A DNA stretch of 64,000 nucleotides. Origin: Squalus acanthias. Lineage: Eukaryota. Below the pieces are notes generated by a model. It was given only the letters and a program-made list of their open reading frames with translations, did no database searches and had not been told where the DNA came from. Positions 1-55,400 of the stretch are shown here, piece by piece. Each line of letters begins with the position of its first letter. Position 1 is the first letter of the stretch. The stretch covers positions 59,954,001-60,018,000 of the forward strand of contig CM059439.1 in NCBI GenBank assembly GCA_030390025.1, given 5' to 3'. A program made the position numbers and the translations under genes.

Positions 1-391
1 TTATTTACATTTTTAATTTTTTTAAATCTCCAACAATAATTAAAATCTGAAGGAATGAGACTCCACATTTGTAAAAGTTAATTTTCAGTGCCAGAGAGGT
101 TTTTTGGCAGTAGTTAACACTTATCACGCTATTAAAAATTTACTTACACTGGAATGGACAAGCCCTAACTTTTTCTGGCGAGTTTAGTGGGTGTATATCA
201 CGAAAGTGCAACAACTGTTCCATGTATTTCAATGCTGAGTTTCTCGGCGAGATACAGATAACTCGGACAGCAACTTTCTGATTTCCGTGTTTAACTGCGC
301 ATGTGCGGTCGCTGGAAGTTGCTGACGATTTACTCATTAATAACGGTGAGCGCTGTTTGCCTGAGGTTATTTCTACAGCAAAATCTGGCCC
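1..391 (-). mobile_element. Arm of a PIF/Harbinger-like MITE (family of 52035-54408), cut by window start
   Basis: Reverse-complement similarity to 52035-52450; ends in TIR GCAAAATCTGGCCC followed by ATT. Confidence 0.7.
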
Positions 392-16400: not shown

Positions 16401-19400
16401 AGATAAAGGAAGGCAAGGAAATTTAGTCTTGATGTAATGGGAAAGAATGAGTTAGTAGAGAATTTTGATTTATTGATTGACTAAAATATACAATAATGAA
16501 GCAAGAGTTTCAAAAAAGTGCATCTGCATCAAAACGACTGCCCTCCATGTGCCCACTTGCTGCTACAGTTTGGGTGGGGTGGGGGGCGGGCCAGACATGG
16601 AAATGGTTGACTGTAATACTAAGAACTTTAAAATAAATGTTTCCTTCCCAGGGCAGAATGGTTTTAACTGTTCTGAGAAATAATTTACATTTTGACTAAT
16701 TGCATGGCTTTGCAAAGGGCCAAATACTAAGGTTGTTGCTGCATTCTCATTAAATGTGACAATTTTACATCTTGAAAATAACTCACAGGTACAATTATAT
16801 CAAAACACTGACAGGTGCTAATACTATAGGTATATTTCTCCACTAGGGTGGTTTACAACAGGTCGCATGGGTGGGAAAAAGTGCTATTTAAAGCACAAAG
16901 CAATCTGCAGGAATATTAATACAGTTCTTTCCTTTACTCAATTGGGAGGATTCTGTTAGTTATTAACAGATGGATTGCTCATGGTACTACTTTCTAAAGT
17001 AAACCATATTTCATGTTCATAGTGGAGGCACAAACATGAAAATTAAAAATCATAGGCTATACATGCACGACGTCCCGAAATGTGGTTTTTGTGAGTATCA
17101 TTTCCAACTGAGGGTACAGATCATAGAATCACCCCCAGTATATTTATAGCTTTTCTCATTTAGAATATGTATTTCCAGCTAACTCATGTCAACAATCTGT
17201 ATGTGTTTATTTAAATTGGGACTGGCCTCCTGACGAGAGTTGGACTTGAGCCAGTCGCATGCAGATTGTCAACAGTTTGTAAAAAGAGCAGCTCTAACTT
17301 CACTTCATTACCCTGGCTCCCACAGTCAGGTGGTCTACATTGTATTAGAGGGTGATATTAAAACCATAAGTTGCTTTTTCTGCTATCCAAACCTGGCTTG
17401 TTGGATATTTGTCATTACACTGCTTGTGTGGGCCCTAAAGTGTGGAAATCAAAATCTAATTTAAAAACTGTTGATATCCCAATGGCTCAGTGACCTTACT
17501 TAATGGTTTAAAAATTCTTCCTTTTTTTCCTATCTATCTATTGGGCAGAAAAATATAAATCTTAACTCACCCAAGTTTCCACTCCTTGGCTGCAATTTTG
17601 CTGGCGCTCAGCGGACCCGATTGGTGGCGGGTCAGCTATGAAATTTAAAATGATTGACAGCGAGTCAGGAACCCGCTGTCAAAACACACCCACCTGCATT
17701 TCCCGATGTCTGGTCTGCCAGCACTGAGCAGACCCGACAGGCAGCGGCGGGGGACCCAATTCAAATCATTCGTGGCTTGTTTACAGCCACTTAACAATGC
17801 TTTTTTTCGAAGCTTTTTAACTTTCACAGGTCTCCCAGAGGTTTCCCACTGTGCCTAGACCTCGTCAGTGAAGCTGAGGCGGGAGGTCAGTGGCCATTGA
17901 ATCAGCTGATGAGTTGACAGCTTTAAATGTCAACTCTAAGCTCCCAGCTGATTCAGATATCTTCCCGTAAGCACCAGCATCTCTAAACTGCATTTCCACA
18001 ACAGATTCAAGATGCTGCAAGTCTTTACACAAGTCTTCATGCAGTCTGACCTCATTACCTCTCCCACCATTGACAGATCGCTTCTGTCATCTCTACTTCA
18101 CCTGCCATCTATTCCATCAGTATGGGTGCACTTTCTACTCTCTCACCTTGTTCCTCAGAATCTGACCACGATCAGCCCCAACACCAGCATCACCAGGCAC
18201 ACCAGCAGCACCAACAACCACACCAACCGGTCACAGGGCATCAGCACCCGACCACATTGCTGCCCGGGACGCCAGGGATGGCCTCACCATGGCCAGATTT
18301 ACTTCAGGTTGGCACCACCCCACACCAACACCATAAAGCATCCCTACAATGCTGTGTTTCTTACACAGCCTGTTAATCTGCAAGACACAGAGTTTCTGAT
18401 GCTGTGTTAGAATCATTAGAATTTTACAGCATAGGAGGAGGCCATTCGATCTATCATGCCTGTGTCTGCTCTCTGAAAGAGCTACCCCTCTTAGTTCACC
18501 ACTGTTTCTAGTACAGATTTTTATGTCCCACCAATTCTCTGTGTAAATAAAACTCTCCTATCCTTTTTCTTTTGGTGATGATCTTAAATATATACCCTCT
18601 AGTTACCACCTTACTGACCAGTGGAAATAGATTGTTCCAATTTACTTAATCAAAGCATCTCAAAACATCTCTATCAGATCTCTTCTTAGTCTTTGTTCTA
18701 ATAAAAAGAACCCCTTTATCTCTAGTCTTTAGTCAACTAAAGCCTCTCATTTCTGGTATTATCTTAGTGTATTTCATCTGCAACATGTCCATCGTCTTGT
18801 CACCTGTCCTAAAGTATAATCCCCAAAACTGGACACATTATCCTGGTTGCAGCCGAACCAATGATACGTATAGGTATAGCATTACCTTATTTGTTAGCGT
18901 GTGAGGCAATAATTCTGCCTGTTCCATGAAGTCCAAGGGTCAATTACAGAAACTGAAACTGATTGAAAGCATCTGAAATTGAACAGTGAACTGAGGCTGA
19001 CTAGAAATGCAGTCCCCTTCTGACAATAAAGCCTTTTATGTTACAGTTGTTAAACTCAAGACATTAACGACTGACTTTCCTCTTCACAGTGGTGCTCTGT
19101 CGGAGTGAGACTTCCATCAGCCCCTCCACTACTGCTGCAACCCCAACCAATTTCCTAGATTGTTGTTCATGACTATTACATGGTGGGAACATTGCAACAG
19201 GAGTAGACCGTTCAGCCCCCTGACCCTGTCAATTATGTCATTGCTGGTCTGTACCTCAATTCCATTTACCTGCCTTGATACCTTACCCAACAAAAATCTA
19301 TTGATCTCGGTCTTGAAAATTTCAATTAACCCAGCATCCACAGTCTTTTGGGCAAGAGAGTTCCAGATTTCCAGTGCTTCCTGATTTCACTCCAAAATGG

Positions 19401-28400: not shown

Positions 28401-31400
28401 AGCCAACACAAAGAAAAGGCTAAAAAAATGGGAAATTGAAAAGAAGGAAAAATAAAAGTTGCAGATGCAGAAGGTCTGAAATGAAAACAGACAAATGCTG
28501 AAATACACAGTCGGTCTGCCAGTCTGAAGAGAGAATAAACAGGCCAACAGGCAAATCACAGAGAGGCCCAGGCTACATGTGTGGCCAAAACTGAGGTGTT
28601 TGGCAAACTGCTCACCTAAATCTGCTTTTGATCTCTCCAATCTAGAGAGGACCACCCTGTGAGCAGTGAATACAGACTGGAGGAAGTGCATGTAAATTGC
28701 TGTCTCAGATAGAAGGAATGCTTGTCACCCTAGACAATGATGTGAGAGGAGATGAATCAAATGGTGTTGCATCTGCTGTGGCTGCATGGAAAGGTGCAGG
28801 AAGGTTAGCTGGAACTAGGGGTGGTAGAGTGAAAAAGTAGGGAGCAGTCCCTGCAGAAAGCACAGAGGGGAGGGGAAGACGCGCTTGGTGGTGGGATCAT
28901 GTTGTTGGTGGCATAAATGGCAGATGATGATCAGGAGAATGCAAAGGCTGGTGGGGTGAAAGATGAGGACAAGAAAGACCATGTTGTTGCTGTTGTGAAA
29001 GCAGGGGTAGTGGGAGAGAGGAACTATTTTGGAGTTCTAAAGCGTATTAAAAGGTAATTGAGAGCTTGACATACATTGTAATATAAGTAGATTCTATTTC
29101 AATGCAGCATTAATGATAAATAAAATATTGGAGGATTTTAAAAATGATTAATTTTGGTGTTCCTGCAGGCTGTGACTAAGAATTGTTTTTAAGATAATAA
29201 AACAATCCCAAAATTCACAACTATTTGTGTCAGCTCCATCATTCTGATTGGAAAAGTCTGAATAAACACCATCGATATTTCCAGATCTTCAGAAATGTGT
29301 ACTGACCAGGATGAGGTGTGCATCCTGAGAGATGGTTCATTTGTACCAGTTAATGGGGTATCCCAAAATCAGCTGAAAGCTGGAATAAACGAATATATTG
29401 ATGAGAGTGAGGAATGTTTGATGCTGCTGAAACCTGGAGCCGAAGCTGCAACTGCAAGATGCTCAGCTGCCATTGTAATTTATGCGATCTGCCATTTATG
29501 CCACCGACAAGATGATCCCACCGCCAAGCACATCGTCCCCTCCCCTCTGCGCTTTCTGCAGGGACTGCTCCCTACTTTTTCACTCTACCACCCCGAGTCC
29601 CAGCTAACCTTCCTGCACCTTCCCATGCAGCCATGGGGTAAAGCAATGGTTATATCCCCAGATATCAGAAATGCAATTTCCAGTGTGCATGATCTGTAAC
29701 TAAATACCCTGAGAGTTAACGAGAGTTAACCTGCAGAGTTTGAGTGACTCTAGCTGTCAGTGACTTCATATTACAAGCAATTTTCTTCCGTCTATGGCAG
29801 TAAAATTTGTTCATACCTGGCAGTATCAGAACTTTGTCACTGGACGTCAACAGTTTGCCATCTTTGTACCAGGTGAGAGATGGCGGTGGAACAGCGTTGG
29901 TCTCGCAGTACAGGGAGATGGGGTTGTTAATGACGACATCCTTAAAATCAATACTCCTGCTCCCCTCCAGTGCTCCACCCTTTGTATCGCGAATATTTAC
30001 TGGCTTCACAAAACTTGGCGGAACTAAATAAAGGATTAAAAGAATAGTCATAAGATACAAAATAGTTTTTTTTACAAATCTCTTTCACATTATAAGATTG
30101 CAATTTCTTTACGATAAAAGGCACAGCATAAGAGCAATTAGAGAACAAGCTCAGTATCCAGTAGATGTAAAAGGTAACTCTGGTGTAGGCTGTCTAACAG
30201 TATACAGAAGAGAATTACATACACAGACATTTACTTAAAAAATTCTGAAATTATAGGGAAATAAATCATCCAAATTAGTCTTTTTATATGTTTTGTGTAA
30301 TAGGTAGTATAACAAGGTGAAGTCAGAGGGAACTAGATCCACCCAAGCCAACTACAAGACTGACGGACCTTTTATTTGCCAATATAGATGTCAGTCTAAA
30401 CCACAGCACAGTGTTTTGGCGATTAAACGCTGACTTCTAACCTACTGATTGTAGATTTGACTCATACTGGTGAAGACTTGGTTCAATTCTCTGTTAGCTG
30501 TGTGGTTGGCATGGCCAAGAGTCATAGATCATCCCAGCTTGTTTATCTGGGAGTCAAGCGCCCTTCAAAAGATGGTTGTATCACAAAGTACTTATAGGAA
30601 TAAGCAGATAATATAATCTAACCTTGAACATTTACATCATAGTCTTTTTCATCCTCTCCAGCAATATTGGTGGCAACACAGGTATATCGTCCTGTATCTG
30701 AAATCTGGGTATTCTTGATTTGAATGATACGGCCATTTGCAGTGATAGTGATGTGATCATCTTTCTTGAGAGGCTGGGAATATAAAGGGTTTTTTTTCCC
30801 CATGAAAATTCAAAGCTTTCGATCTTCCTTTACTTTACAGTAATAATCATAGAAACACGTACACTTTGGGAAAACTGATCTGAACCTCTTGCTGTGCTCT
30901 CAACAGATAAGTGGATTGGTTGGAAGGAAACTGATGCTATTGACTGTAGTTTAATAAAAGTATTGCTGTTTTTTCTCCCTCCTTCTCTTGCTAATATGTT
31001 TCTATGGGCTGCAAATGCCCTCCATTACCTCACCAAAGTGGCTATTCTTATAGTCTGAGCTGACTGTGATGGGCATTACAGCCATGCTAGAACCTGTCCT
31101 CACCTGACATCAATCTGTTCACTTTCCTGCAGTAGAATGGGAACTCTGGCTGATGTGTTCATGTATCACTTTAATAATCCACTCAACTATTACCTGATTC
31201 ATTGAGAACACTAGAGCATTTTGTGCTGGTAACTTCATGTACAATTTGTAATCCCTCACTTATTAAATGTAGAGAATAATAGATACCTGGGGATGACTTC
31301 AAGATAGTAATCTAATCAAGAGAACCATAGGATTTTACAGCACAGAAGGAGGCTATTCACCCCCACATGTCTGTGCCAGCTCTTGCTAAATGAATCCAAA

Positions 31401-34400: not shown

Positions 34401-37400
34401 CGCCTGCCAACAGCAGATAGGTGGTGGGAGCAGCTGCCGGGGCTGTCTCGCTGGAATCTTGTGATCGGGAAGGGGGAACGAGTCTGTGGCAGGGGAGGGC
34501 AAAACTTTCCTTGTGGGGTTCGGAGGAGCACATCTGCTTCTCTTGGCCCCACAAGGAAAGTAACACAACTTATCTTTTTGGGTCTCTTATGGCCCAGATC
34601 CTCTTCCCCGCTGCCTTCATCTAGAGGGAAAGCCACTATGGCTTCCTGCTCAGGCTATCCAGTTAAAACTGCAGTCAGGCCACAATGACGTCATCGGGAC
34701 ATGATATGGATATGTAAAAGTGGAACCTGCCGGCTTTGGGTGGATGTCCTTGCCTGCTGCCCGGTAGAGATGGTTAAAATTGGGAATGGTTAGCTCCCTA
34801 TGGCTCTAGGGCAGGTAAATAAACTGGGCGATTTTAACTGGCTACCCACCCAGTTTCCGCGAGGCAGGTAGAGGTGAAATCGACCCCTATGTATTATTTT
34901 CCTCATCACGAGCTGTTATCCATATGTTGCAAGCATAAGAGATAGTCAAAAGCAGTCCTGAAATAGGGTCTAAGTGGGAGTCTCAAGGTAGCAGTGAAGT
35001 GAAGTTGAAGGTCTAATTTCTGACTCCCATTGGGCACTATGTTGCCCCCTTTGACAACTGCAGTGGCTGGGAAACCTGTACTCAACTCCCTCAATCTCCG
35101 AAGGGAGGCAAACAACCACAGACAAAACCTCCTGACGATGCGTTTCTGTGAAACATCTGCATGTCCCCTAAAGTAATCAAGCAAAATTGCAGGAAGTTCA
35201 GCCCACCTTACTACCCACAATATTGGGCTCTGACCTATTGTGTGCTACAGAGGAATCATCCATAGTCCCAGCAGCACAAGAACCATTCTCTTCCACCGAA
35301 AAAATTATCATCTGTGTTTATTCTTCAATCCCGTTGTTAATGAGATAGTTGTCCAGTTCTTTTTAAACAACTGGCTTACGCTAAGTGTCTATTCTATATA
35401 TCTGCTACTCTCCAAGAAACATTTCCCCCCCAAATTTCTAGCCTTGCTTGAGGTTTGTTCATTTTGTATTTACGTCTATTTTGAATCAGAATCAGCTTGT
35501 TTCTACATTAGGCCGTATTTTACGACCCTCACAGGTGCATACACGCCCATAGGGGCCGTGCAAGTGCCAGGTTTAGGCATGAGAAGAGCATTCGCTGAAA
35601 CCCGGCACTTGCGATCTGTCTGTCAAGAATTCTCTTGACAGATCCTCCGCATTCACGGGAGAAGGGCCTCCGCGGGTGGAGAGTTGCGCTTTTTGCACAA
35701 TTTCCGCCTGCTGAATGCCTGTCAAATTCTTACGCCTGGTAAAAGCAGGCATAAGGCCTGCTTTTGCCAGCATAAGAGTTTTAAAAAATAGAAAAATAAA
35801 ATTTGATCACTCGTTTATAAATTAAAAATACTCTTCAAAAAAGTTTATTTTTAGCCCCGTAAAAACATTTAATTTATTTTTCAAAAAATTAAGTTTTTGT
35901 TTAAAATATTTAGTTAAATGGCATTTTAATTAATTTTAAATATGCAATTTAAAAAAAAATGTATTTAATGTGTTGGTGTATCTTTTAGGTGATCCCCATT
36001 CATAGTTCTGTACGGAACTGTCAAAAGTGTCAGAAGTATGAATGGGGAATTCCCTTCTTCCATTGATTCGGCCAACCCACGTGATCCCAGGAGCGCCTAC
36101 GAACCGCTTGCGCCCCTGGGATATGTGGGGCTCTGCCTGCGCTGACCCGGAGAGGCCCAGGATCATAAGCCGCCATTCCACCCGGGCATACAGGTACTTT
36201 CGTAGACATTTTGCAGGTCGGAGGCGTCCGCCCGCGGGAAGCCTCCGATCGCAAACGTTGGCCCATTATGTCTGCTTCTCATTATTTTAAGGATATAGGG
36301 CCCATTCCCTCTTAATCATATTTTCTCTACTTAGACAAGCTGCGATTCATACTAGAGTATTAAATTATACTAGAGTTTTGCATATTGAGTGTTGTATATT
36401 ATACTATATGCAATTAATATGTAGAAATGTCCCTAATGGTATACTGATGTTACATGTAAATTAAACGTAATATAATGTGTATTACAGCATCTTCAAGAAG
36501 GTTGAAATTATTTTTGTTAAAATTGGATATTAAGAGCTCCGCCAATGACCTAATGGGTGAAGACACTGTCCAGTGCAGCACTTCATTCATACAGACCAGA
36601 AAGCCCCAGCTTTGATTCCCACTCTCTGCTGAATTAGCTAATCTAATTCAGATCAGTAGTTTACAATACTACAACTTTCCTCAGCACCTCTGTCCAAGAC
36701 CGCAAAGTGTTGAAAATAAAGGTTTCAATGTTTGACACCACATTAACAGAAACTTTACATGAACATTGCATAAAACACCCAAGTGCCTACCCTTGTGTGT
36801 TGTTGGTTGGTATGATTGGACTAGGATGAGGGTGAGTGTGAGGGGTGGCTAGTGAGATGGGGGAGTGATAATGTAGGTAGAGAGGGATGGGTGGAGGTGC
36901 AAGGTAAGTTGGTGTGAGTAAGGATGTGCAGAGTAGGGTAGGGAAGGCAGAGTGATGGGGATGTGATGAGTGGCACAGCAGGATGAGGTTGAGTGTGGCT
37001 TTGCAGTAACGTTTCGTGATCTACTGAGATCAGTGAAAGGTTTGCCCCACTGCAGCCTGGTCCTCCCTGACGGCATCTCTGCTTGTGTCCTCCTGTGCAA
37101 TGTGCAACCAGGCTGCGTTGATCTCCTGGGGAGGTCTCTTCCACCCATTGGAAGGGAAGAGAACCTCCCTGCGTGCTGTGACTCCCTCCATAAGCATATG
37201 GAGGGAGTCATGAGAGAGCCTGGGTGCAGCCCTGCACCTTTGTGCAGTGCTCGTCAGTGTTTGCACCAGCTCAATGCTGTAGAACACTGACAGCACAACT
37301 ATCAAAATCAATTTGCGCATGGTCCCTTTAAGGAAACCGGCTGATGACGCGTCATCAAATGATGTCATCAGACCCACTTCCTTCAATTGGCCGGCAAACG

Positions 37401-40400
37401 CGCTGGGCAGACTTAACAAGCCCAATCAAGGGAAAATCATTTTGGACAGCGGGCTGGAGCTAGCAGCGGGGCCGGGACCTGCCACCGACGTCGCCCGCAA
37501 CAGACCCGTCGAGGTTGGTAAAATCCAGCCCTGCGTGTCTTGGGAAGGATTCTTCAATCTCATTGGTTAAGGAGATACACAGTTGCTTGCTCTGTTCACA
37601 CAGGTCCCAGATCCCCTATAGAGGGCGCCGCGCTGAAATGGATTTCTAATCACCGCAAGTTCCAGTGCAAAAGCTCAGAGAAAGTCTGTGGCAAGCGTAA
37701 GTGTAATGAACAGCTGGCACCATTCGTTTGCTGTTGACCGCAAAATCCGGGCCATTGTACCACAAAAGGGCAGAACAAACATCTGCAGAGCATCAAGGAA
37801 CAGGTGGATGGTCAGTGCTTGGATCCAGCGTCCACATTTCCTGCATTTTAAGCTTAAAAATCTTGCCCATTACTTCCACATTTCTGGGCTCCTCTCTCCA
37901 TGTAGCTGCCAGCCAGCATTGTGCCTCTATTTTTTTTTTAAACATATGCTTGCTACCACGCTTGGAAGGATAGCAGAGGTTACAGTGAAGTGCAAGAGAT
38001 GCCAAAAAGAACCAGCTGTCTATCTGTGGTAAAATGGAAGCAGTATTTTCAATATTATAATTGATTTCACACAACTGCCTCAGGCCTCATGGGCAGGGCC
38101 CTTCCTCCCTTACACACTCACTTACATTCGGTACATCATGCTACACACAGGCAAGGTGCGTCTACTAACTGGGTGAAAATATAAAATGTTGTTATTCTGT
38201 TAAAAAATACATATAACCACCCTGCTGTATGTAAACCCACATTAATACTCACTCAATCAGAGGGATTCAGGCATTAGTATATAATGAAGGTGTTGGGTTG
38301 GTGTTCCGCATATGCTCCCATCCTGAGGGCTTTGCAGTTTCCGGTGTTGTTGATGCCGCCATTGTGAAAAAAGTCACACAATCCAGCTCTTTATTACAAA
38401 TACATTGGCTATAATTACATTCACTTTTAAATCTGACTGATTTTATTAATGGCAGTTGAGCCTGTTCAAGTGGTTATGACAGGTTAACACTCCCAAGAAG
38501 AATCATTGGTCTTTAAATCTTCAGCTGCTTCATCAATGACCTTCCCTCCAACATAAGGTCAGAAATGGGGATGTTCGCTGATGACTGCACAATGTTCAGC
38601 ACCATTCGCAACTCCTCAGATAATGAAGCAGTCCATGCCCGCATGCAACAAGACTTGGACGACGTTCAGGCTTGGGCTGATAAGTGGCAGGTAACATTCG
38701 TGCCACAGAAGTGCCAGGCAATGACTATCTCCAACAAGCGAGAGTCTAACCACCTCCCCATGACATTCAACGGCATTACCATCGCCGAATCCCCCACCAT
38801 CAACATCCTGGGGGTCACCATTGACCAGAAACTTAACTGGACCAGTCACATAAATACTGTGGCAACAAGAGCAGGTCAGAGGCTAGGTATTCTGTGGTGA
38901 GTGTCTCACCTCCTGACTCCCCAAAGCCTTTCCACCATCTACAAGGTACAAGTACGGAGTGTGATGGAATACTCTCCACTTGCCTGGATGAGTGCAGCTG
39001 CAACAACACTCAAGAAGCTCGACACCAGCCAGGACAAAGCAGCCCGCTTGATTGGCACCCCATCTACCAGCTTAAACATTCACTCCCTCTACCACCGGCG
39101 TACCGTGGCTGCAGTGTGTACCATCTACAAGATGCACTGCAGCAACTCGCCAAGGCTTCTTCGGCAGCACCTCCCAAACCTGCGACCTCTACCACCTCGA
39201 AGGACAAGGGCAGCAGATGCATGGGAACACCACCATCTCCAAGTTCCCCTCCAAGTCACACACCATCCTGACTTAGAAGTATATCGTCGATCCTTCATCG
39301 TCGCTGGGTCAAAATCCTGGAACTCCCTCCCTAACAGCACTGTGGGAGTACCTTCACCACACGGACTGCAGCGGTTCAAGGCGGCTCACCACCACCTTCT
39401 CAAGGGCAATAAATGCTGGCCTTGCCAGAGACGCCCACATCCCATGAACGAATAAAAAAAAGAGACTATGGGACCGACCTTCAACATCATTGCACCCGTT
39501 TTACAGACAGAGAAAGAGTGTAACGATGGCGATTCTAGCGGAGTGGGTTGGCTCGGCATCTGAGCCGGTCGAAATTTGAAGTGTAGTGAAAATCTGGAAA
39601 ACTCTCCCCCAAAACACTGTTGAGGCTCGGGGGTCAACTGAAAATTTCATAACTGAGATTGATTTGTTAGGCAAGGGTATCAAGGGTTACGGAACCAAGG
39701 CAGATGGAGTTAAGATACAGATCAGCCATGATGTGATTGAATGGCGGAACAGGAGCGAGGGGCTAAATGGCCTACTCCTGGTCCTATGTTCCGATGTCAT
39801 GTAGCCTTGGGGGTCAGATAAGAAGGTGGAAACTAAAATGTGAATAAAGTCAAAAATAGTGCATAGATTCCTCTGGGCTTGAACAGAACGGTAATTGAGA
39901 GTGTGGATGTTAATGTGAACGGTACTTCCCTTTTCAGCAACCTCTCAGCATAATCATTACAATTGGTTAGATCAAGAAGAAATTGGTACTTTGTTCCAAT
40001 AATAATAACCAATTTAATTACAGCACAGAAATATAGAGGCAAAGGACGACAGTGAAAAATGGAAAGGATGTTAGTGAAAAGTCCTATTGTCTGAAAATCT
40101 AAAATATTCGACACACACGTCCATCTAAAACAGTACTGATGTAGAATTAGATACTTTTTAATGGGTTAATTATTTGGTTTTTTAAAAGTACATCAAACTT
40201 TCTAATTTAATTCCACCCATATTTTTACCAAATTAATTGTAATATATGCCTTAGCTAGGAATAATATGGTAGTTCTGATATTTGTTTCATATTAATTACT
40301 AAGATATAAGATATTTGATCACAGTAAAATGGAATGTTATTACAAAGATGAAATCATTTAATCACCTAGACCTGAAATGCTGCAACAAGCATTAATTAAA

Positions 40401-43400
40401 ATGCAAATAAATAAATCACCATGGCTGCTTTGCTCTCCTTCAGAATTGTTAATAATCTCATCCAAGTGCACCAGCTTAGAGCTCGCAGTTACCAACTCCC
40501 CTGATCACCTGAACTCATTCAACAAAGGCCCACTAGGCACGTCTCACTACCATTTGATTTCAATCCAAGTGACCTTTCATTGGTATCCTGGAAGGGATGC
40601 TAAGTGCATGGTTTGGCTGTATGACAGTGCTAACTGGAATAGCCTTTAAACAGGAAGTTTCTATCTAAACGTTCAAATATTCAGACTCCTTCTGGCTCGG
40701 ACCAAGCAGATTATGTTTAGTGCTGCAAAGCACCACATTCCACCCAAGCAACCAAATGGTGACATTGGCATTCATTTAAATCTTTAATAGATAGAGAAGA
40801 CCATGGCATCAGCTTGCTTGAATCTCAATTAAAAAAAGCCCTAAGTATGTGATTCTCAGACTTCAAGATCTGGCAGAAGACAGACAAATCTGTTTCCAAC
40901 ATTAGGCCCATCCCTCCACTTGAGAAGACGTGTGTGTTTGGACAAGGCAGATTTGTTGAATATCAAATTTCCTGAAAAGCAATCTGAAATCCAAGGGCAG
41001 GTACCAAAGGTTCTATTAAAGTTTGTTTAATCAGCCAAAACAAGACCAGACACAAGAAAGTTAAACATCTTCTAAACCAATCTTCTAGATCAAAAAAGGA
41101 GAACATTACCACCATTTGCTGTAGAAATAGGCTCAAGATGAAAGATCATCAAATCAATGCCTAAATGGACAGTCCTAACAACGTTATTTGGTTATCAGTC
41201 TTATTCTTTCTTCATTTGAATGATGGTTTTTATCTCTGGAGGCTTTGGATTTTTAACAGGAGTGATTAATTAACAATTGGTTTTGGCACAGCAGATGACA
41301 CGAAGGAATAAGGTACTACTTCAGCTAATTACAATACACCATATTCACGTAATCCTGACTATTATTTAAAAAAGAGGCAATTGCTTACATTTTATGGCAT
41401 CAAACTCTAGTGTATCGTTGAGCTGTGACTGGATTTTTAAAATTTTGAATTTAGGATAATTGATTAAAATTAAAATATGCTCATTACATTCATTTAAAAA
41501 TCTGTTTAGAAAGCCAGGTAGATCACCAGATTATTGTACATTTATAATGAGCAGATTTCAGATTAAAACTCAAGAAGCTGGATACTTCAATTACATTTTC
41601 TCAACATTAATGAATATTTTTATAAAAAAATCTATATCAGGGGTTTAACTCTGGATTTCAATTTCCTGACAGCCTTATTTTTAAGTGCGATAAACAGTTT
41701 GCAGCAAATCCCTATCTGTGCTATTTTAACACAGTCATTAACCCATTGGATTTAAGAAGAGTTTTCAGCAGATTTGGTAAATGATGAGGAAGATGGCACA
41801 CACTTGAATGCCACAATGTAGACAACTTCCTGCCCCTACACATTACATCTGGTGTCTCCAAGGATCTATCCTCTTCCTCATCTATATATGTTGCCTCTTG
41901 GCTACATCATCCAAAGACATAGGTTCAGCTTCCACATGTACTCGGACGACATCCTGCTCTATCTCTTCACCACCTCTCTCGACTCCTCTGCTGCCTCTGT
42001 GTTGTCAGACTGCTGCCCAACACTCAATCCTAGATGAGCCGCAACTTCCTCCAGATAAACATTGGGAAGACCAAAGCATCGTCTTCGGTCCCCACCACAA
42101 ATTCCATATTCTTGCCGCTGATTCCTTCCCCCTCCCCGACCACCATCTCAGGTTGAACCAGAATGTTTGCAACCTAGGCGTCCTATTCAACCTTGAGCTG
42201 AGCTTCAGACCCCATATCCTCTCCATCACAAAGACCGCCTATTTCTACTTCCATAATGTCACCTGCCTCAGACCCTGCCTCAGCCACCAGCTGCCAAAAC
42301 CCACATCCATGCCTTTGTCACCTCCAGACTCGACTATTCCAATTCACACTGGCCAGCTTCCCATCCTCCGCTCTCCATAAACCTCAGCTTATCTAAAACT
42401 CTGCTGCCTATATCCAATCCCAGACCAACTCCCACTCACCCATCACCCCTATCCTCGCAGACCTACATTGACTCCTAGTCCAGAAATGTCTCCAACCTAA
42501 AATTCTCCAACTCATGTTTAAATCCCTTCAGTGCCTTGCCTCTCCCTATCTTTGTAATCTCCTACAGTCCTTCAACCCCCTCCCCCAGACTCTGCATTCA
42601 TTCCGAGTCTGGCTTCTTGTACATCCCTCCCTTCCTTCACCATACCATTGGTGGCTGTGCCTTCAGCCACCTAGGCCCCAAGCTCTGGAATTCCCTCTAA
42701 ACCTCTCCATCTCCCTTTCCTCCTTTCAGACCCTCCTTAAAACCCATCTTTTTGTCGAAGTTTTTGGTCATCCGTCATAATATCTTGTTCTTTGGGTTGG
42801 CATCCATTTGTGTTTGATTACACCTCTGTAAAGCACCGTAGGATATTTTTCTATGTTAAAGGCGCTATATAAATGCAACTTGTTAATGGCACACATATTA
42901 AATATCATTATGAAGATTTTTTATTATAATTTCATCTCAGCAGGATGTTGGGTTGCATCTTCACTACATTTCTGCTTAAAGAATCAAACTTTGCTTCCAT
43001 GGTTAGGCATATAAATAGTAAAAGGGTAGTAAGAGGAGGGGAGGGGCCACTTAGGGACCAAAAAGGAGACCTATGCATGGTGGCAGACAGTATAGCTGAA
43101 GTACTAAATGAGTATTTTGCATCTGTCTTCACCAAGGAAGAGGATGCTGCCACAGACATAGTGAAGGAGGAGGTAGTGGAGACACTTGATGGTATAAAAA
43201 TTGATAAAGAGGAGGTATTAGGAAGGCTGGCTGTACTTAAAGTACATAAATCACTAGGAGTGGATGGGATGCATTCTAGGATGCTGAAGGAATTGAGGGA
43301 CACCATTGTTCAAAAAAGGGTGTAAAGATAAACCCAGCAACTACAGGCCAGTCAGTTTAACCTCGGTAGTGGGGAAGCTTTTAGAAATAGTAATCAGGGA

Positions 43401-46400
43401 CAAAATTAACAGTCACTTGGATAGGTGTGGCTCAATTAAGGAAAGCCATCCATGATCGAGTTTTTTGATGAGGTAACAGAGCGGGTTGATGAGGGTAACG
43501 CAGTTGACGTAGTGTACATGGATTTCCAAAGGCGTTCGACAAAGTGCCACATAATAGGCTCGCCAGCAAAGTTGAAGCCCATGGAATAAAAGGGACAGTG
43601 GCAGCATAGATATTAAATTGGCTAAGTGACAGGAAACAGACTGGAAGGACGTATGCAGTGGTGTTCCCCAGGGGTCGGTTCTAGGACCACTGCTTTTCTT
43701 GATAGATATTAATGACTTGGACGTGGTGGTACAGGGCACAATTTCAAAATTTGCAGATGACAAAAAACTTGGAAGTATAGTGAACAGTGAGGAGGATAGT
43801 GATAGACTTGAGGAAGACATACAGGCTGGTGAAATGGGCGGACACATGGCAGATGAAAGTTAACGCAGAAAAGTGTGAAGTGATACATTTTGGTAGAAGG
43901 AATGAGGAGAGGACATATAAACTAAATGGTACAATCCTAAAGGGGGTGCACAAGCAGAAAGACCTGGGGGTATATGTGCACAAATCGTTGAAGGTGGCAG
44001 GGCAGGTTAAGAAAGCAGTTAAAAAGGCTTACGGGATCCTGGGCTTCATAAATAGAGGTATAGAGTACAAAAGTGTGGAAATGATGATGAACCTGTATAA
44101 AACACTGGTTCGGCCTCAACTGGAGTACTGTGTCACACTTTAGGAAGGATGTGAAGGCCTTAGAGAAGGTGCAGAAAAGATTTACGAGAATGATTCCAGG
44201 AATGAGGGACTTCAGTTACGTGGATAGACTGGAGAAGCTAGGGTTGTTCTCCTTGGAGCAGAGAAGATTGAGAGAAGATTTGATAGAGGTGTTCAAAATC
44301 ATGAGGGGTCTGGACAGAGTAGATGGAGAGAAACTGTTCCCATTGGCAGAAGGGTTGAGAACCAGAGGAGACAGATTTAAGGTGATTGGCAAAAGAACCA
44401 AAGGCGACGTAAGAAAAAACTTTTTTACGCAGCGAGTGGTTAAGATCTGGAATGCACTGCATGAAAGGGTGGTGGAGGCAGACTCGATCTTATCTTTCAA
44501 AAGAGAGTTGGATAAGTGTCTGAAGGAAAAAAAATTGGCATGGGAGTGGGACTAGCCGAGAGTCGGCATGGGCTCCACGGGCCGAATGGCCTTCTTCCAT
44601 GCAGTAACCATTCTATGATTCTATGAAAGCCTGTATTAGTCTTGTGGTATCTTGATGCAGAAGCCAACTTTTTTCATACAAATTCTTTCCATAATACAGT
44701 GAAAGAATACACTTTATCTGTTAGTTTCTGTTGAATCCTATTCTGCAGAATACCAAACTATTGTTCTGGTGTTTTGCTACTTTCTAGCAACAGTTTTACT
44801 TGAAATGTGTCAAACTTTCTTTTTCACCCAGATATAACCTCTTATAGCCTTTATTGGAAACGTAAGGCCTAATATGTGATGACAGTTACACTTGTTTTGA
44901 AACAGATTTTGTATTTTGCTACCACGTGGCCTTACAGGACCAGGATAAAATATTATGGTCCACTTGGCTGATCCCAAATAGAAATATTCAAGTGCCATGG
45001 AGCCTCTAATATCCATTTAAACCACTAGCGCAGACAAATGGAGCCTTGTCTCATTTGAAAGAGGGCACCATTAACAATGCTTTAGTACATCACTGGAGTG
45101 GTAGCCTAGATTAAGTGCTCAAGTCATGAAGGGAAGCTTGAACCCATACTTTGTGAGCCTAAGGTGAGTGCTACCAACTGACACCGGTTAAAAGTTTGTT
45201 GCTGGGTATTTCATATTATTCAGAGTCAGAAAGTTATAAATATATACTTACACTTGCTTGCTAAGAAAGCTGCAAATTATATTTAGCACTTAAAAGGATT
45301 GTTATTTTAACCCATCTAATTTTCATGATGTCTGTGATATCATAATGAAAAAACTTAACAAGAATATTTTATCCCTTAGTTATAATGCTTTTATATTTAC
45401 CTGGAAGAATCTGGACATTTTTGTTAGAGTCGAAAGGTGCTCCATCTTTGAGCCAAGTGATGGTTGCAGGAGGGTACGATTGTGCCTCACATACAAGGGA
45501 GGTGGGGCTATTCAGAATAACAGTGACATCCTCTGGAGTGCCTTGACTGTCAACACCAGGAATTTTTGGAGACACTGGATGGTGAAAGAGAAAACCGCAA
45601 ATAAGTTATAAAGCTGATTCAAGCTCCAGTTACACTCGAGCTATACGTTTACAATAAACATGGAATATGTTTTGCACAAATAGTAATGTTGCAAGGGGCC
45701 AACAATATGGTCCCAGGACAGTGATTCCTGAACTGCTACTCATCAGGTGTTGTGTGCATCTGCAATCAAACAAACTGGCCTGGCACAATAATGTGAGGTC
45801 AACTCATTTGAATATTATTCCCAGCGTATTGCTTATGATGTGCTGGAAGAGCACTGAGGTCACAAGGGTGGGATTTCCACTGCCAGCAGCTTGTAAACGG
45901 CTGCGGGCGCGTGCAAGGCAGCAAGACCTTTTGGGAATGATCTTCTGAGGCCCAAATGTGTAGCTGCAGGTAAGTTGGATGGCCCTAATGATAGGTCAGC
46001 ACAACCCAGGGAAAATATGTCCCCATAGCCCTCCCTTCTAATGGGCACTAAGCAACTAGTGTGCTTCTCCAGTCACCAGCTCATTATGTGGAGCAGACCT
46101 TATTTGCATTACAAATGAAGACTTGATGAGTGTAGTTAATATGCAGGCTCTTTGTGTCTCAGGCTCTTCCCACCTGCACTCAGCACAAAGGGCATGGAGT
46201 AGGTCTCAAGCCCCAGCGCTAGGGTTGCCAACTTTGGTTGGATATATTCCTGGAGGTTTGATCACATGACATCTGTCCTGTAGTTGAGTATCTTTGCTTA
46301 TGACTACGTGCCAGCAACTACTGTGCGAGAAGTTCTGAGAACCAAGAGACCACCCACGAGCAGGTGAAGAAGGAAAACTGAAAGGCAGGCAAAGTCTCAG

Positions 46401-49400
46401 TCTCCCTCTGTCCCCTTCGCCCAAGCCCCAATCCCGACTTCCAGCCCCAATCTCCATCTCTCCTCTCGTTGGACCCCCAACCTCCATTGTGCAGTCTCCC
46501 TCTCTCCGAGTCACATCCCCATTTCCCTCTCTCCACAAACCCCATCTCCCTCTTTCCCCAGAGTCCTAGCCCCATATCCCTCTCTCTCTCCCCCAGAGTC
46601 CCAGCCCCATATCCCTCTCTCTCTCCCAGAGTCCCATCCGCCAACCCCCATTCAACAATCTCCCTCTCTTCCCCATCCCCCTGCTCCCATCAAGCCCCCA
46701 TCTCCCTGCCCCCAGAACCCTGTCTCTCTCTCTCTCTCCTCAGATCCTCAGTCAACTCTTGTCTCTCCCACCACCAGCCAGTCCTGTTGCTGTTCACCCC
46801 TCAGCGAGGGCTGAGGGACTGGAGGCAATGTCACCGAGCCGGAGCCTTCTCCGAGCAGCAGTCAGTGGCGTCACAGAGCAGTGTGGAGGAGGGGGGGTAG
46901 CACTACTGCGGCAAGAAATTTTTAATGCAAAGATCTCCCGGGCTCCTAGCAGCAATGCCTGGGAGATCCATTCTCTACTCCAGTAGAGTTGGCAACCCTA
47001 CTCTGCACCCAATAATACAGGGCCTCGACACCCGAGGGTTTCCAGTGTTGTAGGCCATATTATTGGCTTTGTAGCCCAATGTTCAGTTCAAAGTAAAACT
47101 TCCTGATCCTTTGACCACAGTACTCCCTTGATCTGAGAACCAAAGGATTCACATCGGAATGGTGCACACACCTGATGCCTGTTCCCTGCTTTTTTCTTTA
47201 GAAATGAAAAGCTCAGCACTCAGGGCATGGTGGTTTAACATCACCTGACTATCAGCATTTTCTGGCACATATCTAAAACCAATTAGCCTCAGTTGCATCA
47301 GGGTTGCCCAAGTCCTTGTGTTGAATGGCTGGTGAAAACAAGGCATTCTCTTGAGGAAAACCTTCCACTCTTGGAGGTTAAAATTTACAGTTGTTTTGGA
47401 CTCAAATGCTAGAACTGTATTATTCAGCCTAGTGGGCTTAAAATGTTCGGAACAGTACATAGGCCACCTACCTAGTACATTTAGGTTGAAGTTCTTGTTC
47501 TTGTCTCCAGCTGTGTTAGAGGCAATGCAGGTGTATCGACCTGTATCAGACACATGTGCACTCACAATCTGGAGAAAGCGCCCACTGGATAGAATCCGAT
47601 GCTGCTGGTCTTCAGACAGAGGTTGACCATCTTTCACCCATCTTATTTGTGGAGCAGGATTGCCTTTTCACGAAAAAAAACAACAAATTCCGTGAATTCC
47701 TTTTCTTTGTATGAAATATAATTATCACCTTTAATTCTTGCCCTAACTGTAGCAGGTGGCCTAATGATCTACTCTTACCTGAAAATTATTACTATGTTGA
47801 TTTAGAAATGCGTTAAGGTAGTCTTGTGGGAAGTTGGATGGGTTGGCTAAATACAAAAAGTGGTTTACTTCTGCCTTTAAATCATTACTTTGTTACCAGT
47901 GAATACATTTTCCATTTGCGTCTTCCTGACATAGAGACATGCCCATGAGGAGTACATATTGGGATATCACATGCAGCCCATGATTTTCCATCCATTATGG
48001 ATGAAGTATTGTGGGGTGCGTATGGGAGCACGATTTCTCAATATGTCCTCTCGGTTGATTATGCTCAGCACCAGGAGTATGCAAGTGGAAAAAGTACCCC
48101 TATGTTCCCCACCTGGCTTGTATCTACTGCAGTAGATACCAAAATTACTGTGTTTTTAAGTGAATCACTTGTATATAGAAATTCAGTGCCATAGGATTGA
48201 ATCGAAACAAAACCTGTACGTGGAGAATTATAACCAACTTGTTCTCAAGTAGAATTTCGTCCTAGCTATTTACTGGCACTGCCTGTATTGTGTGCAAGGA
48301 GGCTATTGCGCTACCTTCTTAGAAATAGCTAGTTAAAATATTGTCCAGTGATATATGTAAGCCACCAGAATAGAATCACATATTTATACACAGTTGCGGC
48401 GCGGTGCATAAGTAACAAATCACTTATATCTGTCAAATCACACTACTGGCTACACATATTAATGGGGGAAACAATGAGTATAGTTTTTTAATCATCCAAT
48501 AAATTTGGTCTGTACTAATTTGTGGATTTGTTCCACGCTATAAATACTTTCTTTTTTTCTCCTTATCCCTCCTGTCTCGCACTCATGCTGGGTATGGTTC
48601 CACAGGCACTGCTGCTCTGGTATCGTATGCAAGTGGTCATTTTTGCCCTCCCTAGTCCAGGAGGGCCTAGACTAGTTATAGCACTTTCACAGTCATCCTG
48701 GCTGCGAATGGCTAACACAGCTCAATCTATGGACCATACCAGTGACCTCCCTGTTTTACCTGGGATAGTGCCACACTAACTGATAAATTCATGTATTGAG
48801 CTATTAGAAAAATCTAAGTAGGATTTTGACTGGTATATCTTCGTGTTTTGGTTATAGGAGTTTACATAGAATTATAGAAGTTTACTGCACAGAAGGAGGC
48901 CATTTGGCCCATTGTGTCTATGCTGGCCGAAAAAGAGCTATCCAGCCTAATTCCACTTCCCAGCTCTTGGTCCATAGCTTTGCAGGCCGCGGCATTTTAA
49001 GTGCACATCCAGGCACTTTGTAAATGTGATGAGGGTTTCTGCCTTTACCACCCTTTCAGGCAGTGAGTTCCAGACCCCCACCACCCTCTAGGTGGAAAAT
49101 TTTCTCCTCAACTCCCCTCTAATCCTTCGACCAATTACATTCTTTTTGTCTCCTTATCCCTCCTGTCACGCACTCATGTTGGGTATGGTTCCACAGGCAC
49201 TGGTGCTCTAGTATTGTATCCAAGTGGCCACTTAAATCTATGCCCCCTGGTTATTGACCTCTCCACTAAGGGAAACAGGTCCTTCCTATCCACTCTATTT
49301 AGGCCCCTCATAATTTTATACACCTCAATTAAATCTCCCCTCAGCCTTCTGTGTTCCAAAGAAAACAACCCCAGCCTATCCATCGATCCTCCTTGTTAAT

Positions 49401-52400
49401 TCCTCAAAAAATTCAAACAATTTAGTCAGAAACAACCTTCCCTTAACAAATCCATGCTGACTGCCCTTGATTAACCCGTGCCTTTCTAAATGACGATTAA
49501 TACTTCAAAATTTTTTCCAATAATTTGCCCAACACCGAGGTTAGGCTGACTGGCCTGTAAATACTCTGTCCATCCCTTTCTCCCTTTTTAAACAACAGTA
49601 CAACGTTAGCAATCTTCACTCTGGGAGGCTATTATCACACAAGTTACAAAGATAAAAATGAAACCTTTTGAGGTCTCTAGAAGGCAGACATTAACCACGG
49701 TTGATGCCCAATTTGCAACAGCAACCTGTGATATATTAAAACTTAAAGGTTATGACAATATTGCTACAATATTAACCTTCGGGTCACGGGGGCGATGTCT
49801 GGCATGCATTGTCGTCCTCAGCACTCATCTTTGTTGATTATAATGCGCTGTCAATCACCTTTTGTAGTACGCTGGGCAACATATTACATCACTCAACCGC
49901 TGATAACATCACTACATTGTAAGAGAACAATGTGGGCTACTTCACAATTATATATGCTAGTCATTACTGTGCTCTTACCTGAAACCTCACAAGTGAGGGT
50001 AATACTATGATTCTCCTTTATTTTCACATCTTCCATCTTATCTTCATTAACGATGCTTGGTGGTACTATTTATATAAAAATAATGGAGTTAAATGTTATA
50101 ACAGCCACACCAAAATACTTCTCACCTCTTTATTAGACTTCAGGTCTAAAAATAGATATTCAAATCAAATGAGGAGAATTCTAATTGGACCACTTTGGAA
50201 GGACTGAATGAATTGCAGTTTCCAATAACATTTCACTGGTCCTGATGTACAAAATTCAGAGTCTTGCACACAAATGTTGCACCTGCAGTAGGATTTGCTT
50301 GATAATATCCACGGATAATTGGATCTTATTTCCAGCTATTTCCATGATAAGAGAAGAACTTGCATTTATATAGCACCTTATCACATTGTCAGAGCATCCC
50401 AAAGCACTTTACAACCATGGGATTATTTTGAAATATACTGTTGTCATGTCAGAAAATATGGTAGCCAATCTGCACACAGCAAGGTCCCACAAACAGCAAG
50501 TGAATAACTGACCAGATAATTTGTTTTTGGTAGTGTTGGTCGAGGGAGGAATGTTAGTCAGGACACTGTGGGAACTCATTACTCTTCCTCAAATGGTGTA
50601 ATGGGACTTTTTCCATCTAGCTGAATAGGCTTAACTTAATATCTCATCCAAATGATGATTCCGAAGTGAGGGTATTACCAAATAAGCCAACCTGTCACTA
50701 GGCTAGCAGGGAAGTAAGGGAGTACTGCGTCTCTGTTCTTGTTTCAAGTAACAATTTAGAATCCAGTATGTTAGCAAAAACCTCGGAACATCAGTGGCCA
50801 ATTAGGACTGAGCACTCAGGGTCTTTTGTGCTTCAATAACTATAACTGAAGATTTTGGAGTGTTTGATATTCTGAACCTTGCCTTTAAAGGGCTTATTCA
50901 ATGGAGAAAATTTGAAGCTAGGCTTCTGTTGAAATCTGGTGTAATACACTTCTCTTCTTTGGGGCAGGAGCTTGAATTTAACCAGATTGACTGAATTAAA
51001 TGATGTAAAAAAAATATTAAACATGATGAAAGCCAATGGTATTTGGATGGTTACACAGAGGCTCCACAACAGAGATTCTAATGCATCTTAATTGGTTCAA
51101 AACCTACGAATGATTTATATATTGTGTTGTAAAGCAGAATGAGACTAACAGATGGAATGGATCATAGATCATTTGTTCAATTTCTGTTATTCTTTGGGGT
51201 AAACTAAGCACATGCAAACATTTTTTCCGGTTTTGGGACAGCGATTGTGGTACCTGCAGTATATTTTGGTGGTGAAATCTTTCTTCAGTACTCAAAGTGT
51301 TAAGGTGGTGACTCTGATCACTGTATCCAGCTGGTTGCTATGGATACAGTTCTGAACTAATGGTAAGTCTGCCAGTATTGAGGATTAACAATCAAAGACA
51401 AATGGCTACCTTAGTTGTATGAGACAAGAACAGTCATAACAGCTTGTTAGGGGCTCACCTGCCAACAGTATCTTCCATTCTTCTGAACTGGATATTGTCT
51501 ATATTACAACAGTAACTACACTTCAAAAGTACTTTATTGGCTGTGAAACGCATTGGGAATTCCTGAGGTCATGAAAGGTGGTATATAAATGCAAGTTCTT
51601 TCTTTACATGCAGGAATGTAAACCACACAAGCCCAATATTCCTGATGATAGTTTACTTTTAAAATAATTAATATTGCCAGTCTGTATGTTATAAAAGGAA
51701 ATTATTCTATTTGTTCTAAAATAACAGCACTACAGCTCTTAAAGGCAAAGTGTCATTAGGAATTTCTGATATGGCAGAAATAATTCAATTAATACATTAT
51801 GATGTGAAAGAATGTAATCGCTATTGCTCGAAAAGAAAATTAAACTACCACTTACTTTCACGCTTTTTTGTTTCATTTATTGATTGTTGGAGAAGTGGTT
51901 GAAGCACTACTCTGACACTGTCAGGCTAACAGCAACTCCTCCAAGTCAGCTCTCTCAAAGGGATCATTGTTACATAATTAAGAGTATTTGTGGGGGGGCG
52001 GAGAACAGAATAATATGATAGTTAATAATTCTTTGGCCCAGATTTTGCGTAGAGAATAACGGTGAGGCTAACAGCGCTCACAGTTATTATGGATAAATTG
52101 GACAGCAACTGCCAGAGTACACATATCAGTTAAATGCAGAAATCCAGAAGTTGCGGTCCGAGTTACCCTGCTCCTCCACAGGCTGTGCTATAACAGTACC
52201 TCGCCGATAGACTCGACATTGAAATACATGCAAGGGCATAAGGTTGCGGTACTTGCCCACTAGTTACCCAATAAACACAGCAGAAAAAGTTAGGGCTGAT
52301 GTATTTAGGAGTAAGTCAATTTTTAATGGCATGATCAGTCATAATTACTGCCAAACAACCTCTCTGGCCCTGAAAATTTAATTTCAATAAGTGTGGAGTC

Positions 52401-55400
52401 TTATTCCTTCAGAATTGAATTAGTGTTGGAGATTTAAAAAAAATTTTTTTTTTGTTTTACTTTTCCTGTCTCTTTTATCTCTCTCTTAATCCTATCTTTC
52501 TTTCCCAATCTTTATTTCGCTTTCTGTACTTGATTTAAAACTAATTTATAATTCCTGGTTTATATTTCCTGGTTTAGACTCTGGGGCCAAGATTTTCCTT
52601 ACCTCGGCGGGTCATGTCGATGGCAGGTCCCGACCCTGCTGCTGGCTCCATCCCACTCTGGAAAATGATTTTCCATTGATAGGGCTTGTTAAGCCCGCCC
52701 AACCCGTTTCTCAGGCAATTAGAGGAAGCGGGTCTGGTGATGTCATTCATGATGCATCATCAGCCAGTTTCCTTAAAGGGACCATGGCCAACTTTCTTTT
52801 AACATTTGTGCTGTCAGTGTTCTACAGCATTGAGGTGCTGCAAACACTGACAATGACTGCACAGAGGTGCAGGGCTGCACCCAGGTTCTCCCATGATTCC
52901 CTCCATATGCTTATGGAGGGAGTCAGAGCATGCAGGGAGGTCCTCTTCCCTTCCCATGGGCAGAAGAGACCTCCCCAGGAGACCAAGACAGCCTGGTTGC
53001 ACATTGCACAGGAGGGCACAAGCAGGGATGTCGTCAGGAGGACCAGGCTGCAGTGGCGCAAACCTTTCAATGATCTCAGTAGATCACGGAATGTTAGTAC
53101 AAAGTCACACTCACCTTCATCCTGCTGTGCCTCTCATCACATCCCCATCACTGCCTTCCCTACCCTACTCCTGCACATCCTTACTCACACCAACTTACCT
53201 TGCACGTCCACCCATCCCTCTCTATCTACATTATCACATCCCCATCTCACTAGCCACCCCTCACACTCACCCTCATCCTAGTGCAATCATACCAACTAAC
53301 AACACACAAGGGTAGGCACTTGGGTGTTTTATCCAATGTTCATGTAAAGTTTCTGTTAATGTGCTGTCAAACATTGAAACCTTTATTTTCAACACTTTCC
53401 GGTCTTGGACAGATTTGTGTGCACCTTTGGACGTGGCTTAGTGAGTTGCAGTGAATGGTGGGACATAACGCTATCCCCACAATGGTGGTGAGTGTGAAAG
53501 GAATGGCTTGGACATTGTAGGGATGCTTTATGGTGTTGATGTGGGGTGGTGCCAACTTGGTGCATCATGTGGCAGCTAGGGTGTACAGTGTCAAGTTAAC
53601 TAAATCTGGTCATGATGAGACCATCCCTGGCCTCCTGGGCCACAATACGGTCGGGTGCTAATGCCCTCTGTTCTGTGCAGCATCAGGTGATTGTGGAGCA
53701 GGTTGGTTGTTGTTGGTGCTGCTGGTGAGCCTGGTGCTGCTGGTGTTGGTGCTGATTGTGGTCGGATTCTGAGGACCAAGGTGAGACAGTATAAAGGGCA
53801 CCCATGTTGATGGAATAGATGGCAGATAAAGTAGAGATGACAGAAGCATTCTGTCAATGGTGAGAGAGTACTTCCAATGAGGTAAGAGTGGATGGAGAGG
53901 TGGAGATCTGTCATGTGGGAGCTTTTACTGTACACTTGAAGCTGTCAAGTAATCAGCTGGGGCAATGGTCACTGAACTCCCGCCTCAGGTGGACAGCCAT
54001 GGTCCCCGAACAGCGTGGTTCCCGTGGCCATGAAGTTAAAGTGAAAAGGCAAGTTAAAAAAGCCTGTTAATGATCTGTCAACTAGATGCTAATGAGTTTA
54101 ATTGGGTCGCCCGCTGTCAAAAAAATCCAATTTCCCACCCGACCCGCCATCGATCCTGTCCACTGACCCCCCGGAAAATTCTGCCTTGTTGTCTCAGTGA
54201 GGATCCTTCAATCTGATTGGTTGAAGAGACACGCTGTTACTTGCCCTGCTCACACATGCCACAGATCCCCTGTAGAGGGTGCTGTGCTGGATTAGATGCC
54301 CCGATGATGCAAGTCTCCGCTCAAAAGACCGCAAAAACTCTGTGGGCAGCTGTCAGCATAGTGAACGGCAAGTGCCATTCCTTCGCCGCTGACCGCAAAA
54401 TGCGGCCCAATGTGTTTTTTGATTTTTAGAAAGGGATCCTGGTGGTCGTGCTCTCTGTTTGATTATATTACTTTAGTGCTAATTGTTAAGCTTATTTGGA
54501 ACTATCAAAAGGTGATAATGAAAAATAAGAGCCTTTAAAAAAAATATTTCTACGCGGTTTCAAAAATGAGACCTTGATATCAAAGCTTTTATGTGAAGAC
54601 AACTACAAGACAATAACAAGGCCTGCTTAGTGTATATAGTCACAGAAGGGTTCGACAGCGTGATCATGACTGTTCCATCACTGTGCTGTGGAAATGGAAT
54701 ATTTCTGCTCTCATTATATACCTAAGATATCAAGGTCAAAGCTTTTGCTGTCTTCTCCTGCAGAATTTGTGACTACACAGGAGTATCTCCCAGAATCCTC
54801 CACTGCTGCATGCATCAAACGTAGTATGCGACCTCCTGTGGGAAAATAAGAGTTCAAATGTTACATAAGGTAGGTAATTAAAAAAGGACACAAAAATAAC
54901 TGAAATACAGCACAATGTTTGTACAGCTTCTCACAAAGTCCAATTGGGGTCAAAGTAGCAACCGTCTACATTGTTATTTAGGAATGCAATTATTTTAGTT
55001 AATCCCAATATGCAGTTAAATTCTATGACACGTATTCACAAAGGAACACAGTACTAAAATGATTTGCTTTACACAAATAATGAATCATTTATACTATATA
55101 TAGGACAGACACAAAGTCACCATCACTAAACATAGCCACATCTGTCTGCTATTGTTTAAATAGCTGCCTGTATCAACAAGTGGGGTTTGGCTTTGTTGTC
55201 AATTAATTATCTGTAACATCTTATGTGCTTCATATTTTCTCCATGGACATTTCACAAAACTCGGTGGGCTCATTTTACACTAAATTTGTGCTCGAGCTAA
55301 TCCAGCAGAGGCTGAATTTACAGGCAAGTCTGGTAGCAAAAAGTACTGAGCACTTGGGAGATATGCTGGTGTGGTGGAGCAGCTCTCCAGAGGTGGGCTT

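Follow-up and report, generated by a model that had tools for sequence, protein, structure and literature searches.

A single base position in an abundant miniature inverted-repeat transposable element (MITE) of Squalus acanthias is occupied, in copy after copy, by Harbinger-type transposons. The site came to our attention in a 64,000-nucleotide stretch of contig CM059439.1 (assembly GCA_030390025.1, positions 59,954,001 to 60,018,000 of the forward strand; hereafter the window), in which two related inserts, called A and B, adjoin the same junction of this MITE (hereafter the host) in opposite orientations. Harbinger elements move by two-protein, cut-and-paste transposition into an extended target. 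We consider it probable, with good confidence, that the host site drew many Harbinger families by sequence match: an older, abundant MITE carries a near-optimal palindrome, and later families inserted into it singly. Thousands of older host copies would supply near-optimal targets for later families, which would insert independently, with the transposase and the Myb protein supplied in trans. A palindromic target would permit either orientation. Harbinger mobilisation is described as needing both the transposase and the Myb protein (PMC2836001).

Occupancy of the host site

The host is a short, non-coding, high-copy element of ~770 bp with the terminal inverted repeat (TIR) GGCCCGGATTTTGCG; an Rfam scan of one empty copy returned no match. 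Its insertion site reads AGACTC-TGC-GTGTCT, and paired junctions establish that TGC is duplicated upon insertion. With the host right arm alone as the query, we retrieved 30 loci from among the 40 best matches, 29 of them besides the window's own. Specifically, 11 of the 29 have a TIR element at exactly the same base, 16 are empty, and one is unclear. The last of the 29, a single case at locus L030 (1720-2520), contains an insert that resembles a long interspersed nuclear element (LINE), with an AAC-repeat end and a duplication of ~10 bp at the host site. We take this insert to be RTE-like.

Counts of short site patterns, which select intact half-sites, extend these observations to the genome. 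A 17-mer from the host right half has 831 exact matches; 242 follow a TIR-like SCC and 137 follow the half-site AGACTC. True insertions were found at 28 of the 30 SCC loci that we examined. On contig C1, all 58 intact-site matches were classified: 25 are filled, 32 are empty (nine of these called from the exact pattern alone), and one is unclear, which places the filled fraction within a confidence interval of 0.30-0.57. On the left of the site, a hand count of the first 100 listed among 771 matches gives 30 with G as the next base, which serves as a proxy for a TIR. Same-base filling at the host site is far beyond chance. The original prediction would have given way to random flanks genome-wide; the flanks depart strongly from randomness, with strong enrichment of the host site.

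The elements found at this site are diverse. At 70% identity the 25 inserts on C1 form 11 clusters, and at 80% they form 21; the 14 complete ones span 182-7830 bp. The inserts have their own TIRs, each with its own 3-bp duplication, and the ends of the inner families follow GG(G/C)(C/G)nnnA(T/A)(T/A)TT in 56 junctions. Duplicated triplets are TGC/TGC at paired host junctions. In the tiles, a set of 60 evenly spaced 10-kb pieces (600 kb in total), most plausible pairs of ends likewise have identical triplets. An open reading frame with a Myb/SANT domain (PF13873) is present in A and in the insert at L154. A DDE transposase (PF13359) lies inside the insert at L145, with relatives at many loci and none in A. 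Nesting also occurs within host-site inserts: a transposase-bearing Harbinger element sits inside the L145 insert (3349-4023), L154 holds a 7.8-kb stack, and L115 appears to have received a double insertion.

Elsewhere in the host, a secondary hot spot at position -211 was rejected, as its matches are mostly internal TIR-like host sequence and only L103 looks real. A second host site at about +117 is filled in L094 and L097, and in L097 AGACAC stands on both sides. Host flanks of the form AWT occur on both sides in 23 of 40 full-length copies (for example, L004, L008, L010, and L015). The middle base of the two flanks agrees in 11 of these 23, and all four combinations occur five to seven times each. 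At L010, an empty paralogous site reveals a 3-bp target, ATT, for a host copy that is flanked by ATT and AAT. The centre of the host duplication looks as if it had been unfaithfully copied. The TIRs of host and inserts are similar.

Copies in the window and the composite readings

Insert A lies in a host copy on the plus strand. The host left arm (52035..52581) has the TIR GGCCCAGATTTTGCG and ends in the half-site AGACTC; the right arm, with its TIR, occupies 54190..54408. Between them, at 52585..54186 on the same strand, is a 1.6-kb non-autonomous Harbinger-type element with TIRs, whose termini are GGCCAAGATTTTCC and GGAAAATTCTGCCT. The junctions of A are themselves decayed: on the plus strand, the left copy of the target duplication (52582..52584) reads TGG, the family form being TGC, and the right copy (54187..54189) reads TGT, with the G of the adjoining half-site lost. 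A Myb/SANT-like domain remnant at 52880..53083 on the plus strand matches PF13873 (E 7.5e-7), which upholds the earlier description of the inner element as Myb-carrying. The opposite end had been labeled the transposase side. That label found no backing in homology: a tblastn search with the L145 Harbinger transposase finds nothing inside A, and the best match in the window has an E value of 3.2.

Insert B (36689..37531, minus strand) is a truncated sister of A that turns its Myb-side end toward the host right arm. Positions 36689-37498 of B align to 53413-52607 of A, reversed, with 89.5% identity over 811 nt. The end of B, AAAATCCAGCCC, reaches 37531 and adjoins TGC-GTGTCT, that is, the TGC target triplet (37532..37534, plus strand) followed by a host right arm (37535..37753, plus strand; 72% to A's arm). 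Because B breaks off at 36689 and the left host arm is absent, it offers a single readable host junction. The alignment of A to B, together with the match of the host arms, agrees with the original prediction that both abut the same host junction in opposite orientations. The further claim that one and the same element is present twice holds as relatedness (89.5%) and fails as identity, since A and B belong to sister subfamilies whose ends differ. Similarly, of the two registers proposed for the target duplication, TGC stands and CTG is ruled out by the paired host junctions.

Two further copies complete the set. Copy C (17588..18351, minus strand) is truncated and distantly related to A (69-72%). 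It lies outside any host, as had been noted for the copy at 17588, and its flank is CCACTC-CTT. The third host copy (1..391, minus strand) crosses the window start; its site, just beyond the window, is empty (L176).

The opposite orientations of A and B at the same base are the observation that favors a single composite element whose inner cassette can invert, the alternative offered by the original prediction. We give it next to no credence. Specifically, the inserts come from many families with their own TIRs and 3-bp duplications, 32 of 58 sites, more than half, stand empty with a single TGC, and the same inner family is mostly free. Both orientations are also seen beyond the window: family A-like inserts point toward the host left arm in seven cases (A, L039, L151, L156, L114, L171, and L286) and toward the right arm in three or four (B, L014, L292, and, weakly, L283). 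In a 33-row tree, the seven host-inserted family-A copies need four label changes, and they form one group in 0% of 200 bootstrap trees. The tree omits L057, L058, and L171 for length and replaces L039 with the longer L177; its free copies were selected for their similarity to A, and the bootstrap is not fully settled. Inserts unrelated in sequence and in length (182-7830 bp), combined with the 0% one-group bootstraps, rule out a single composite and the invertible cassette alike.

A weaker form of the composite idea attributes part of the high filling to hosts that were already filled and then moved as composites by means of the host TIRs. Both host TIRs are often retained around an insert, four of the family-A copies inserted in hosts (B, L151, L114, and L156) group at 100/99, and the host label is more clustered than in shuffles (3 of 500 as low). 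However, B is reversed within its 100/99 group, the host arms are 67-77% alike versus 79-91% for the inserts in that group, and the 25 inserts make 21 clusters at 80% identity. Moreover, B-type free copies are under-sampled because similarity to A guided the choice of free copies. On balance, we regard composite movement as a very improbable source of the filling, and we return to independent insertion by sequence match.

Other features of the window deserve mention. A TIR-like end, GGGCCAACGTTTGCG, lies at 36250-36264 on the minus strand, ~425 bases before copy B. Two near-perfect hairpin elements are present, one at 12975-13189 (106-nt arms, 100% complementary) and one at 25337-25510 (73-nt arms, 99%). 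Finally, five related 89-nt stretches on the minus strand (4521-4609, 24184-24272, 30618-30706, 47467-47555, and 58740-58828) resemble exons for immunoglobulin domains, presumably of a hemicentin-like gene. Given these five exon-like stretches, the window elements likely reside in introns of one large gene.

The target motif

Family A is found mostly outside the host. Among the nearest family A copies, the host flanks 1 of 29 Myb-side (5') ends and 0 of 29 far (3') ends, two far-end loci being without a terminus. In the tiles, 55 Harbinger-type ends were kept from 61, after removal of five internal matches and one duplicate, and none of the 55 is at the host site. These counts (1/29, 0/29, and 0/55) rule out dedicated targeting by family A. 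They likewise fail the one-target test, in which most copies would reside in one repeat, as with elements of the Dada, Pokey, or Tx1L type. The suggestion that a transposon targets another transposon family therefore survives as repeated independent insertion but not as a dedicated habit: the family is mostly outside the host, at least 11 families share the site, and LINE-type repeats are also hot.

What the free insertions share is a flanking sequence. The flanks of free family A copies have the consensus AAACAC-WNW-GTGTTT (51 of 56 scorable ends), and AGACAC flanks occur at 6 of 55 tile ends versus a background of 2.3e-4. The host site differs by one base from the palindrome AGACAC-NNN-GTGTCT. 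Outside the host, a hand tally in the tiles finds that occupancy depends on the number of mismatches to this palindrome: 2/28 sites are filled at two mismatches, 2/175 at three, and 2/1540 at four. Carried on to a single mismatch, this ladder would give tens of percent, the level seen at the host site. Most likely, the host site owes its filling to this near-match, one base off a 15-bp palindrome that is preferred genome-wide. The extended target-site preference that the original prediction named for Harbinger elements is then the probable explanation of the hot spot.

Variation within the host points to sequence as well. A host subfamily with the half-site GCAGTC keeps the same TIRs and has 3 verified fills among 68 listed, compared with 30/100 (Fisher p 2e-5). 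One GCAGTC match is an empty site with a small deletion, and 11 G-ending GCTGTC matches represent another, empty host subfamily. In the genome, empty AGACAC-N3-GTGTCT occurs 69 times, versus a mean of 115.5 for spacers of 1, 2, 4, and 5 (Poisson p 2e-6); this depletion of ~40% is a count that repeats and overlap handling can distort. The central triplet may matter as well. Host sites reading TGTG versus TGCA number 5 versus 40 when empty and 30 versus 22 when filled (hand counts; p 2e-6). Among fills with TGT on the right, 11 of 22 also have a left triplet that ends in T, versus 2 of 18 others (p 0.016), and exact TGT/TGT accounts for 8 of the 22 (p 0.08). Preferential consumption of TGT sites is thus partly supported. 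A longer palindrome, TCCT...AGGA, lies 12-15 bp from the host site, and 55 free ends reveal no preference at those positions.

Hot spots of the same kind exist in unrelated repeats. In a LINE-like repeat that bears AGACAC-AGA-GTGTCC, 15 sites are filled among the first 100 of 913 matches; three of these are close together and are possibly duplicates. Ten loci of this repeat were fetched, and both of the GG-ending ones have real TIR junctions. From 2794 junctions of the form VAGACAC-NNN-GGGCTGGATTTT, 30 loci were fetched: six fall at one site of a LINE that codes for reverse transcriptase (RVT_1) and that we assume to be CR1, three fall in a second repeat, three in the host, and the set includes two further pairs. 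Pfam support for the second LINE-like repeat is sub-threshold only. The hot spot in the coding LINE, AGACAC-AAA-GTATTT, is located between the endonuclease and reverse transcriptase regions (L241, L243, L251, L252, L253, and L259), and its 6 of 30 exceed the share of the host site. In addition, four family-A ends (L032, L059, L065, and L072) occupy one site, AGAGTT-AAC-GTTTCA, of another abundant repeat, presumably a tail of a short interspersed nuclear element.

Several results weigh against sequence match as the full account. The mismatch ladder rests on two filled sites per step. Pattern-selected sites overstate family-wide filling: all three AGACTC-type hosts in the tiles are empty, with the right half changed. 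From ~27 elements per 600 kb, rough arithmetic puts the needed enrichment at several thousand-fold, and an independent-position matrix built from family A assigns the host site ~170 times the average rate. Only counts of whole hexamers, based on 6 and 1 observations, close this gap. The matrix also scores three other host positions at 7.5-7.8, versus 7.84 for the main site, and yet inserts at other host positions number ~5 versus ~36, in a sample that includes loci chosen for a filled junction. The TGC centre of the host is atypical, as free sites are W-rich. Finally, the LINE-like site of equal mismatch count is filled in 15 versus 30 per 100 (p 0.017), a difference for which age could account.

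Some of these shortfalls are what one would expect if sequence match were joined by a boost specific to the host. The host MITE, a Harbinger-type substrate, might bind the Myb/transposase complex or offer a favorable DNA shape, and so draw families to the site. The 170-fold under-prediction by the simple matrix, filling at twice the level of the LINE-like site, heavy use despite a non-preferred TGC centre, and the similar TIRs of host and inserts all favor this possibility. Conversely, the host subfamily with the same TIRs and an altered half-site is rarely filled (3/68), non-Harbinger repeats are comparable hot spots, and none of the 55 tile ends is at the host site. We judge such a boost unlikely. 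We hold out similarly little hope for the stronger picture of the host as a transposon trap, in which Myb protein and transposase on its own ends would recruit Harbinger families beyond the draw of the 15-mer. Match to the 15-bp target remains the explanation that we prefer.

Known systems and implications

The closest parallel is with zebrafish. Harbinger3_DR and Harbinger3N_DR have a palindromic 15-bp target, AAACACCWGGTCTTT (PMC3016246), and a 15-bp target preference is described for vertebrate Harbinger elements (PMC2836001). Harbinger3_DR resembles the present case in its system of Myb and transposase, its 3-bp duplication, and its palindromic 15-bp target. Its left hexamer, AAACAC, is the consensus found here and is one base off AGACAC. 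By contrast, the central triplet here is not CWG but relaxed and rich in W, with TGC at the host site, and the passages on Harbinger3_DR that we consulted mention no repeat-borne site filled in one third of its copies. Among related elements, NuwaI is defined by CWG duplications and Pangu has ANT flanks, according to the relevant passages of PMC4482050. These PHIS elements share with the inserts TIRs that start with GG or GGG, a second reading frame with Myb/SANT, and a 3-bp duplication, and the AWT flanks of the host resemble the ANT of Pangu. Unlike in NuwaI, CWG duplications are absent here (0 of 55 tile ends), with W-rich triplets in their place.

Repeats that receive other transposons have precedents. 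In rice, the MITE Ditto is targeted by many families, and its nesting results from insertions that occurred independently (Jiang and Wessler 2001, cited after a review, PMC5172404). Ditto and the host are alike in being targeted by many other families through independent insertions. They differ in that here the genome is a vertebrate one, insertion is at one base position, and the cause is traced to a 15-bp target. Dada, Pokey, and non-LTR elements that target transposable elements, such as Tx1L, insert repeatedly at one position, as the passages available in PMC8869645 describe. Those systems and the host site have in common that a multicopy sequence receives insertions again and again at one position. 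However, those elements reside specifically in their target, whereas here ~1-3% of family copies do so and many families share the site. In the elephant shark, no Harbinger element was found, and other cartilaginous fish were suggested for examination, per the portion of PMC9179366 that treats them. Our literature search, with subscription journals and Repbase outside it, found no report of this host MITE or of Harbinger nesting in a shark-type genome.

The hot spot is explained mostly by known biology; its occupancy is unusually high and is measurable. A shared 15-bp preference can be strong enough to fill at least one third of the intact copies of one site and to leave empty perfect palindromes depleted throughout a genome of 3.7 Gb. 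The host MITE also serves as a natural mutational scan of the Harbinger target; the nested pairs at the host site are a ready set for ordering the ages of families. For annotation, filled hosts are not to be modeled as one composite family. Given the strength of the motif, cases in this genome in which one transposon seems to target another should therefore face the motif test first.

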